Source of the DNA: Vulcanimicrobiaceae bacterium
GTDB lineage: Bacteria; Vulcanimicrobiota; Vulcanimicrobiia; Vulcanimicrobiales; Vulcanimicrobiaceae
Length of the DNA: 57,815 nucleotides
Assembly: GCA_036510515.1 (NCBI GenBank)
Contig: DATCDS010000115.1
Location: forward strand, 1 to 57,815
Reading direction: 5' to 3'
The notes beneath the pieces are model-generated. The model was not told where the DNA came from, searched no databases, and saw only the letters and a list, made by a program, of their open reading frames with translations. Below, in pieces: positions 52,243 to 52,651 of this stretch. The first letter of the stretch is position 1. Each line of letters begins with the position of its first letter. The translations under genes and the position numbers were made by a program.

Positions 52243-52265
52243 TGGTCCCTCGATGCTGGATAACT

Positions 52266-52296
52266 AAAAAGCCCCCGCCGGATCGGCGGGGGCTTT
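52266..52296 (-). terminator. intrinsic terminator/attenuator hairpin upstream of the leuA-like gene
   Basis: The minus strand reads AAAGCCCCCGCCGATCCGGCGGGGGCTTTTT, ending 24 nt before the ATG at 52242. Confidence 0.75.
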
Positions 52297-52317
52297 GCGG
52301 GTGAATCTCTTCGATCT

Positions 52318-52398
52318 CTACGCAGCAGCCATCCGGCACCGATCCGCAATGGAAAGGCGAGCGAGGAGAAGCGTAAGGAGGCAGAGGTCGCGCTGCAT
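52318..52398 (-). CDS. Leu-rich leader peptide (26 aa)
   Basis: MQRDLCLLTLLLARLSIADRCRMAAA has 7 Leu within residues 5-15. It sits between a promoter-like element and the terminator hairpin. Confidence 0.7.
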   Translation of the reverse strand: MQRDLCLLTLLLARLSIADRCRMAAA

Positions 52399-52410
52399 AA
52401 AGTGTTGCCT

Positions 52411-52439
52411 ACCATAGCAAGTCGCGACGCGCGCGTCAA
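52411..52439 (-). promoter_or_regulatory. sigma70-like promoter for the Leu leader/leuA-like gene
   Basis: The minus strand reads TTGACG - 17 nt - TATGGT. The ATG is 12 nt downstream of the -10. Confidence 0.55.
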
Positions 52440-52459
52440 CCCGCGCCGAGACCTCGAGG

Positions 52460-52488
52460 TTGACACGGGTAGCGGGCTGTGGTACCTT
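52460..52488 (+). promoter_or_regulatory. sigma70-like promoter for the ilv leader/ilvB operon
   Basis: TTGACA - 17 nt - TACCTT. The ATG of the leader ORF is 10 nt downstream of the -10. Confidence 0.55.
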
Positions 52489-52498
52489 CGTCTCCAAC

Positions 52499-52576
52499 AT
52501 GTCACGCCTCGTTCTTACGCTCGTAGTTCTTATCGGCGGTCCGCCTGCGGATCGGCTGTGGATGGCTACTGCGTAA
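52499..52576 (+). CDS. branched-chain-amino-acid-rich leader peptide (25 aa)
   Basis: MSRLVLTLVVLIGGPPADRLWMATA. Residues 4-12 are LVLTLVVLI. Confidence 0.7.
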   Translation: MSRLVLTLVVLIGGPPADRLWMATA

Positions 52577-52600
52577 ACGACGAGACATCGTCAGAACCGC

Positions 52601-52639
52601 GAAGCCCCCGCCGATCCGGCGGGGGCTTCGTTTTTTTTT
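52601..52639 (+). terminator. intrinsic terminator/attenuator upstream of ilvB
   Basis: GAAGCCCCCGCCGATCCGGCGGGGGCTTC followed by GTTTTTTTTT, ending 12 nt before the ilvB ATG. Confidence 0.8.
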
Positions 52640-52651
52640 ACCGGGGGTTGG

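Follow-up and report, generated by a model that had tools for sequence, protein, structure and literature searches.

We analysed 57,815 nucleotides from a Vulcanimicrobiaceae bacterium (positions 1 to 57,815 of contig DATCDS010000115.1, assembly GCA_036510515.1; this whole stretch is called the window below), with a focus on the gap of 409 bp (52243-52651) that lies exactly between two divergent genes of branched-chain amino acid (BCAA) biosynthesis, a short leuA on the minus strand and ilvB, the first gene of an operon, on the plus strand. The gap contains two putative transcription attenuators pointing away from each other, each made of a promoter-like sequence, a short open reading frame (ORF) and a GC-rich hairpin with a T-run (Table 1). 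The two short ORFs had been proposed in a sequence-only reading of the window, one for its seven Leu codons and the other for the run LVLTLVVLI, and both translate as claimed. In the leuA-side leader, seven of the 26 codons are Leu codons (found at 52386..52354, every one CUC or CUU), which would serve as the sensor; the sensor LVLTLVVLI of the ilvB-side leader is found at 52508-52534 and is encoded by CUC/CUU, GUU/GUA/GUU and AUC.

The same GC hairpin and a T-run follow each ORF, as had been noted. The ilvB-side hairpin has 15 pairs (12 of them GC) followed by TTTTTTTT, and the leuA-side hairpin has 13 pairs followed by a weaker tract (TTAGTTAT, UUAGUUAU). The 23-nt hairpin core GCCCCCGCCGATCCGGCGGGGGC is found at just two sites in the window (0 expected by chance), and no stems of at least 9 bp with a T-run were found elsewhere in its 57.8 kb. 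Measured by stem and U-tract ends, the hairpins lie 12-25 nt before the genes, so the spacing given earlier (12-24 nt) was about right: on the ilvB side the stem ends 20 nt and the U-tract about 12 nt before the ATG, and 25 nt separate the end of the leuA-side stem from the ATG of leuA. The minimum-free-energy (MFE) fold of each window leader contains the terminator, and comparison with shuffled sequences gives z -5.3 for the ilvB side and z -2.6 for the leuA side. The two leaders form an inverted repeat, in which the hairpin arms (52269-52300 / 52597-52628) are 97% complementary over 32 nt and the ORF tails (52319-52348 / 52546-52575) are 83% complementary over 30 nt; when aligned, the two leaders have a mean column identity of 77%. 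We also considered a genome-wide REP-like (repetitive extragenic palindromic) repeat hairpin, which was ruled out, the hairpin being found only twice in the window and elsewhere solely upstream of BCAA genes.

Scans of genomes and metagenomes for orthologues of the short leuA gave 160 loci (loci are referred to by L numbers). The closest relatives of LeuA and IlvB are found in metagenome-assembled genomes (MAGs) of Candidatus Eremiobacterota (Vulcanimicrobiota, family Vulcanimicrobiaceae/'Baltobacteraceae'); the short LeuA shares at most 71% identity with its relatives in MAGs, and IlvB shares 82% with one ENA contig and at most 70% with named MAGs. L161 has an identical LeuA protein and the same neighbouring genes (a comparison of protein and gene order). 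L162 (IlvB 82% and LeuA 75% identical) keeps the entire twin arrangement, with MSRLVLTLVVLIGRSTADRFGMATA and the hairpin facing ilvB, and MKRTLLSLSLLLSQSIADRCRMAAA, the hairpin and a tract of U10 facing the short leuA. Ten or more other Eremiobacterota/Vulcanimicrobiota lineages have the same RNA element before ilvB, ilvC-ilvB or a short leuA: as a single copy upstream of ilvB (L163, L164/L165, L166, L167, L170 and L171), as a single copy upstream of ilvC-ilvB-small ORF-long leuA (L168/L169, encoding MFARLVLVLSVILTDPPDRRAAFA; L172; L174/L175), and before a short leuA in another context, 3' of leuB (L085, encoding MLVTSLLLLALALVGRSASNRLGLTTA). The conservation of leader ORFs and hairpins in relatives, proposed earlier as a check, is thus borne out in a set of 12 leaders.

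We built a covariance model (R1) from these 12 leaders, on which it scores 64-134 bits (E 1e-13 to 1e-30). Over about 1.2 Mb of sequence, R1 has no other match above noise except a partial copy, truncated at its 5' end, in L013/L016. That copy (L013 3843-4000, and the same sequence in L016) lies 5' of a short leuA and consists of a promoter-like TTGACC-17-TGaTAGCGT, region 2 (see below; here CCGGAUCGG) and the family hairpin (GCCCCCGCC CGUCC GGCGGGGGC), and its lone ORF (MPVVRIGRGCSLQNAIIIRP...) reads through the hairpin; it may be a decayed or re-purposed attenuator. On seven Enterobacteriaceae leuA loci (L057, L060, L063, L068, L072, L074 and L157), R1 matches at noise level (14-16 bits, E 0.3-1), which reflects a generic terminator plus Leu codons and not homology. 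The leuA-side leader occurs in few lineages, namely the window, L162, L085 and, in a decayed form, L013/L016; in most of the Eremiobacterota relatives (about 15 of L001-L018, and others) the short leuA comes directly 3' of ilvE without a leader, and we therefore regard the leuA-side copy as lineage-restricted and the ilvB-type copy as widespread.

Out of the 12 leaders, all have an ATG located 7-13 nt past the -10 box of a promoter-like sequence (TTGACx-17/18-(TGn)TAnnnT) and no Shine-Dalgarno (SD) sequence. In the window the distance from the -10 hexamer to the ATG is 12 nt on the leuA side and 10 nt on the ilvB side, again with no SD. Such a short distance without an SD fits leaderless translation, as had been suggested. 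The claim about the promoters themselves stands for the layout and less well for one of the boxes: the ilvB-side promoter has a -35 box matching 6/6 and an extended TGn, but its -10 box (TACCTT) matches 3/6, so that it fails the criterion of 4/6 per hexamer and the consensus promoter scan lists the leuA-side promoter only. The leuA-side layout is also present in L162 and L085, and relatives keep TTGACx-17/18-TGnTAnnnT in their ilvB leaders. The spacing of the two back-to-back -35 boxes is 20 bp in the window and about 56 bp in L162, where there is an AT-rich insert; judging by this comparison, the promoter overlap between the two leaders is not conserved. We note a perfect 8-bp palindrome (CCTCGAGG, 52452-52459) between the two -35 boxes of the window.

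The composition of the sensor tracks the downstream gene across the 12 leaders. The first 16 codons include 6-7 Leu, 0-2 Val and 0-1 Ile in leuA leaders, and 2-5 Leu, 1-3 Val and 0-4 Ile in ilvB leaders. The choice of codons is biased as well: CUC/CUU (CUY) accounts for 50/54 sensor Leu codons as compared to 40% in the window's long ORFs (p ~5e-16), CUU alone for 24/54 (10% in the long ORFs), and the rare GUU/GUA for 16/23 sensor Val codons (25% in the long ORFs), although such binomial p-values are optimistic, as the 12 leaders share ancestry and the window alone supplied the baseline. Insertions and deletions within the leader ORFs have lengths divisible by three (columns 6-8 and 31-36 of alignment A2). 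In the 3' part of the ORFs, L167 (+1 frame shift and early stop) and L170 (early stop) keep the nucleotides GG(U/C)UnGC...GCG(U/A)A and lose the peptide; the leader tails are conserved as RNA, not as peptide. The homology of tails and hairpins between the two window copies, proposed from the similar peptide ends, holds at the level of nucleotides (the arm and column identities given above).

The conserved tail is the 5' strand of a predicted antiterminator, which we call region 2. We folded each leader in a stalled state, i.e. using the RNA that begins 12 nt beyond a ribosome stalled at the final sensor codon and extends to the terminator loop, with the right arm absent. A three-helix antiterminator was recovered per-sequence in 10/12 leaders, with energies of -18 to -31 kcal/mol as compared to -19 to -34 for the terminator. 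Its outer helix pairs CGGAUCGG(C/U) with (G)CCGAUCCG, which comprises the loop of the terminator and the end of the left arm before it; its middle helix pairs GGCU with AGCC at the base of the left arm; and its inner helix pairs UGCG(U) with (A)CGCA immediately 5' of the stem. In these folds the leuA-side region 2 pairs with 12/13 left-arm nucleotides, and the ilvB-side region 2 pairs with the pre-terminator CGCG, the left arm and the loop (52594-52616; E -28.4 kcal/mol, z -2.8). An antiterminator pairing of GCGGATCGG with the loop and right arm had been put forward before. The pairing itself is kept, with compensatory changes, but its partner (GCCGAUCCG) starts in the last bases of the left arm, runs through the loop and ends with the second base of the right arm; this pairing makes up only the outer helix, the antiterminator as a whole being much longer.

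Base changes in relatives argue for this pairing. The outer and middle helices are 84% paired across the leaders, as compared to 24-49% for partners displaced by 1-3 columns, and RNAalifold independently finds the outer helix with 3 compensatory pairs. In L170 the terminator loop AUC has become AAC and the leader GAU has become GUU; in L167 the two are UAC and GUA. Covariation of a terminator loop with a coding segment upstream would otherwise be unexpected, which argues that the two segments pair. A terminator pair is changed from G-C to A-U in L163, where the leader U still pairs, and the inner helix is changed from GCGU/ACGC to GCAU/AUGC in L168. The terminator stem itself is paired in 96.5% of the cells across the 12 leaders, with double compensatory changes in 5/12 pairs, and its covariation score is reached by 0/500 shuffles. 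Region 2 has a second possible partner. When no ribosome is present, it is predicted to fold back onto the sensor codons (1:2 pairing) in the single-sequence MFE structures of 12/12 leaders, with 9-22 of its 22-28 nucleotides paired upstream (22/27 on the ilvB side of the window, with the regulatory-codon region); the 5' halves of the leaders align poorly (33-60% identity). As for the geometry, with the A site on codon 12-14 the footprint of the ribosome would extend to about the start of region 2, and once the ribosome has reached the stop codon, it would be over the middle and inner strands of region 2.

These elements, their conservation, the codon bias and the covarying base pairs can be read directly from the sequences; the transcription start sites, the translation of the leaders, ribosome stalling and the choice between termination and readthrough in vivo are what we infer from them. 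With a probability of roughly 0.85, the gap holds two paralogous, divergent ribosome-mediated transcription attenuators of the trp/leu/ilv type with leaderless leader peptides. Each would be transcribed from its own sigma-70-type promoter, starting at or a few nucleotides before the ATG, so that translation would be leaderless. In each leader ORF of 25-26 codons, codons 4-15 would act as the sensor, for Leu only in the leuA copy and for Leu, Val and Ile in the copy that would control ilvB-ilvM-like-ilvC-ilvD-ilvE. Region 2 (CGGAUCGG...GGCU...UGCGU, in the last third of the ORF) would have two alternative partners, the sensor codons 5' of it (1:2) and, 3' of it, the ACGCA/CGCG spacer together with the entire left arm of the terminator and its loop (2:3, the antiterminator). 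When charged cognate tRNAs are plentiful, the ribosome would reach the stop codon and cover region 2, and the terminator would form; it would also form when the leader is not translated, as 1:2 pairing then takes up region 2. In both cases transcription would stop 12-25 nt before the structural gene. When charged Leu tRNA (or Leu, Val or Ile tRNA on the ilvB side) is scarce, the ribosome would stall on the sensor and cover region 1, leaving region 2 to capture the left arm before the right arm is made, and RNA polymerase would read through.

Several observations weigh against this attenuator reading. Equilibrium folds of the full-length leaders keep the terminator in most cases even with a stalled-ribosome mask, so the folding comparison proposed earlier yields the antiterminator in the stalled-state folds and favours the terminator at equilibrium; antitermination would therefore have to be kinetic, i.e. 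co-transcriptional, which is the usual way for classical attenuators. Covariation of the antiterminator as a whole is just modestly above shuffles because most of the antiterminator is invariant. Its inner helix is paired column-wise in 4-5/12 cells, a count that is low because the register shifts between sequences and that was unchanged after structure-aware realignment with R1; the support for this helix consists of the per-sequence MFE folds and one covarying example (L168). The leuA-side U-tract of the window is weak (UUUUUAGUUAU; U10 in L162), and the ilvB-side -10 hexamer has the three matches mentioned above. The relatedness of the leaders tempers the codon statistics as already said. 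L013/L016 retain the hairpin and region 2 without a Leu-rich ORF (R1 matches positions 51-144 only). Finally, the similar-looking ilvB and leuA leaders of S. coelicolor did not act like classical attenuators when mutated (PMC1262725).

The last two points also speak for an alternative that we consider unlikely, in which the leader terminators are real but are set by a BCAA-responsive RNA-binding protein, a T-box-like sensor of uncharged tRNA or a riboswitch, and the ORFs are incidental. The conservation of region 2, tail and hairpin as RNA rather than peptide would suit such a sensor, as would the copy in L013/L016 and the codon-mutated S. coelicolor leaders (PMC1262725). However, T-box and riboswitch covariance models have no match even at E up to 10 in 51900-53000, nor at gathering score in the whole window. 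Moreover, 12/12 elements have retained a fixed spacing between -10 box and ATG, an open frame with triplet insertions and deletions, and a BCAA-rich sensor that tracks the gene and has the CUY and rare-Val bias, none of which is expected of an untranslated RNA.

It is more improbable still that the short ORFs encode functional hydrophobic peptides (membrane or type I toxin-like) with the hairpins as their own terminators, the structural genes being transcribed from other promoters. The N-terminal half of the peptides is hydrophobic and the hairpin is found 20-35 nt past the ORF stop codon, as that explanation would have it, but the hydrophobic part has 33-60% nucleotide identity between lineages with only the Leu/Val/Ile content and the codon choice kept, the tail survives the frame shift and early stops in L167 and L170, a BCAA biosynthesis gene follows the element directly in every case (in three gene contexts), and the 12-25 nt between U-tract and gene leave no space for a promoter. 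Least credible is a function of the mirror symmetry itself, whereby the inverted arms of about 80 nt (83-97% identical, flanking both promoters and both sensors) would invert the central 200-bp promoter-sensor module and swap the sensors, or a cruciform would couple the promoters, since the orientation is the same in the window, L161 (at the level of the LeuA protein) and L162 with the Leu-only sensor always toward leuA, no recombinase gene adjoins the region, the spacing of the -35 boxes differs between window and L162, and the arms are explained by family-wide RNA conservation, the same hairpin being found in single-copy ilvB leaders (e.g. L164).

Orthologous copies of the window and L162 are 79-85% identical, and paralogous copies are about 70% identical (switch part); orthologues being closer than paralogues, the duplication is older than the split between window and L162. 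The paralogues are no closer to each other than the leuA leader is to ilvB leaders of other lineages, and a recent in-situ duplication or gene conversion is not supported on these grounds. Of the earlier proposal of an inverted duplication with later specialisation, the duplication is thus retained and placed before that split, and an origin in situ is possible at most. The leuA leader of L085 has 55% identity to the window's leuA copy and 62% to its ilvB copy; as it is no closer to the leuA copy, it may have been recruited independently. A broader and tentative idea, which we hold possible rather than probable, is that a portable attenuator chassis (promoter, leaderless ORF frame and three-helix switch) has been copied among ilvB, ilvC-ilvB and short leuA within Vulcanimicrobiota, for short leuA possibly twice, with its specificity re-programmed by rewriting about 10 sensor codons, and that the twin copies in the lineage of the window are maybe the only end-product feedback on two enzymes that apparently have no allosteric modules. 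If this is true, attenuation would replace missing allostery, with a LeuA that has no Leu-binding domain and an acetohydroxyacid synthase (AHAS) that has just a 76-aa IlvM-like partner.

Table 1. Features of the leuA-ilvB gap and the flanking genes in the window, and leader peptides of single-copy relatives
Feature	Position	Strand	Basis or remark
leuA-side leader ORF, encodes MQRDLCLLTLLLARLSIADRCRMAAA and stop	52398..52318	-	translation of window
ilvB-side leader ORF, encodes MSRLVLTLVVLIGGPPADRLWMATA and stop	52499..52576	+	translation of window
leuA-side promoter TTGACG, 17 nt, (TGc)TATGGT	52411..52439	-	consensus scan
ilvB-side promoter TTGACA, 17 nt, (TGg)TACCTT	52460..52488	+	direct reading of sequence
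leuA-side region 2, antiterminator 5' strand, CGGAUCGGUGCCGGAUGGCUGCUGCGU	52320..52346	-	3' third of ORF (codons for ADRCRMAAA)
ilvB-side region 2, antiterminator 5' strand, CGGAUCGGCUGUGGAUGGCUACUGCGU	52548..52574	+	stalled-state fold
leuA-side intrinsic terminator: stem-loop 52296..52268 (AAAGCCCCCGCCG AUC CGGCGGGGGCUUU), then UUAGUUAUCC	52257..52296	-	
ilvB-side intrinsic terminator: stem-loop 52599-52631, then U8-9	52599..52640	+	
leuA-short, 2-isopropylmalate synthase-like, 384 aa	51088..52242	-	HMGL-like + HCS_D2 (Pfam), NF002086
ilvB/ilvG-type acetolactate synthase large subunit, first gene of controlled operon	52652..54358	+	TIGR00118 599.9 vs cutoff 538
76-aa ORF, probably IlvM-like small (ACT) subunit	54355..54585	+	weak ACT_5 match, position conserved
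ilvC, ketol-acid reductoisomerase	54563..55603	+	NF004017 522 bits vs cutoff 336
ilvD, dihydroxy-acid dehydratase	55611..57302	+	TIGR00110 668 vs cutoff 618
ilvE, branched-chain aminotransferase, 5' part, runs off window	57299..57815	+	Aminotran_4 E 9.7e-15
Leader peptide of L163, L171: MSTIARVLVGLLLI(S/R)SI(R/H)PDRCKLA(I/V)A			before ilvB
Leader peptide of L164, L165: MLKFARVIVGLIITTIHSDRCRLAVA			before ilvB
Leader peptide of L166: MPTATRFLVRVLLTRRFRSDPCRSAFA			before ilvB
Leader peptide of L167: MSQMLLGLVSLISLPIAGTV			before ilvB
Leader peptide of L170: MSSALLLVVVSLIRQPVVRRR			before ilvB

The sequence-only reading had taken the Leu-only leader as evidence that the 384-aa HMGL enzyme acts as LeuA rather than as citramalate synthase (CimA). 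The 2-isopropylmalate synthase (IPMS) equivalog NF002086 (NCBIfam) matches it with 546.8 bits (cutoff 532) over profile positions 5-382 of 516, and the citramalate synthase models are far under their cutoffs (TIGR00977, 199.7 vs 450; NF042433, 141 vs 950). The C-terminal LeuA_dimer domain (Leu-binding, allosteric) was not found by Pfam, which gives HMGL-like and HCS_D2 only. Assignment to the leucine pathway is thus plausible, with the Leu-only leader as indirect support. In L168, L170, L172 and L174 a long LeuA (566-581 aa, IPMS_D2 + LeuA_dimer) adjoins ilvB instead. Within the ilvB operon, the start of the 76-aa ORF overlaps the stop codon of ilvB (ATGA), and its end is inside the start of ilvC; its sole family match is ACT_5 (E 0.053, below cutoff). 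The same ORF is predicted as a gene in L161, and every one of the relatives' operons has a 68-76-aa ORF without a Pfam match at this position. The ORF probably encodes a minimal IlvM-like small subunit of AHAS that escapes current profile libraries. For ilvE, the gene order in L162 is the same as in the window.

Other observations in the window and in the relatives include the following. A 351-aa ORF (50046-51101, plus strand) converges on the short leuA, with a 14-nt overlap with its 3' end, and has no significant NCBIfam or Pfam match; L161 has a predicted 336-aa gene without a Pfam match in its place. Further away, a 477-aa protein (44427-45860, plus strand) has an Ada/AraC-type N-terminal helix-turn-helix region fused to an AlkA-like DNA-3-methyladenine glycosylase (NF007641, 224.8 bits, slightly under the cutoff of 229). 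One tRNA was the only result of the Rfam gathering search of the whole window, and this tRNA-Asn (GTT; 19502-19576, plus strand) is the sole Rfam or ARAGORN RNA gene in it. L170 (1072-1290, minus strand) has a long leuA divergent from ilvB with its own, different leader (MNGSLRPMALAILLSGTPPA and stop), which is followed by an unrelated hairpin (GAAGGGGCCGCCGCGAAAGCGACGGUCCCUUC + AUUCAUUUCAU) and whose ORF end keeps the family motif ...CUGCGUAG; it is a second kind of divergent leuA/ilvB leader pair. The ilvB gene annotated in L163 (583 aa, NCBI JBTCNW010000065) has its start about 70 nt too far 5' (3001-3071) and so takes in the terminator hairpin; the true start is likely the GTG at about 3071, as in L171.

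The RNA family described here is new to Rfam, and its mechanism is classical and already known, so the family leaves the understanding of attenuation unchanged. What is particular to it is the use of one RNA chassis for several BCAA genes and the back-to-back paralogues in the lineage of window and L162. Two side-by-side paralogous switches with a shared terminator/antiterminator and different sensors would be a case of attenuator specificity evolving by codon replacement alone. Our searches found no literature on attenuators of Eremiobacterota or on divergent or duplicated attenuators, and as far as the searched literature shows, this would be the first attenuator described for the poorly studied phylum Eremiobacterota/Vulcanimicrobiota; it would also indicate leaderless leader-peptide attenuation outside Actinobacteria. 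In practical terms, the family corrects gene starts (the ilvB of L163), supports the IPMS annotation of a truncated HMGL enzyme, and provides a 12-sequence covariance-model seed for annotating MAGs.

Comparable leaders are known from other phyla. In S. aureus a leucine-rich leader peptide controls the BCAA genes of ilv-leu (PMC5794164); one attenuator there serves one large operon and is layered under CodY repression. In Actinobacteria, where ilvB and leuA leaders have been surveyed comparatively (PMC1262725), the leader peptide of C. glutamicum ilvBNC is made without a ribosome-binding site (Morbach 2000, as it is cited in PMC4046766), and M. tuberculosis ilvB1 has an attenuator with an 'LVVI' upstream ORF (uORF), for which a model based on ribosome footprints at the regulatory or the stop codon was given (PMC13236596). 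As in the actinobacterial leaders (C. glutamicum ilvBNC and leuA, M. tuberculosis ilvB1, Streptomyces ilvB/leuA), BCAA- or Leu-rich uORFs are found upstream of ilvB and leuA and a terminator after them. Actinobacterial leuA differs in that a 'LEU element' pseudoknot masks the SD (PMC1262725), whereas leuA of the window shares the terminator/antiterminator chassis of ilvB. The actinobacterial leaders belong to another phylum, and the likeness is one of description.

The closest parallel in design is found in enterobacteria. Their leu, ilvBN and ilvGMEDA leaders contain an ORF with a run of codons for the end product (Leu only for leu, and Leu/Val/Ile for ilv), follow the 1:2/2:3/3:4 logic and have a terminator before the first gene; their sensor codons are unusually rare and they have an SD. 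An Rfam search of 51900-53000 at E up to 10 found no leader at gathering score (Thr_leader 20.5/55, His_leader 21.2/49 and Phe_leader 17.8/55, as score/threshold), and Leu_leader was not listed. Matches to 'rnk_pseudo' on both leaders (36.7 bits, the top score of this search, and 26.1 bits vs 55) were ruled out as terminator-driven. By the Rfam models there is thus no sequence or structure homology to the E. coli/Salmonella leuL (RF00512), ivbL and ilvL, with which the window leaders share the codon-run sensor, the rare codons, the (here predicted) logic of alternative structures and the terminator. Unlike the enterobacterial leaders with their SD, the leaders described here have no SD and an ATG 7-13 nt after the -10 box, and the two elements of the window are paralogues of each other, placed back to back.

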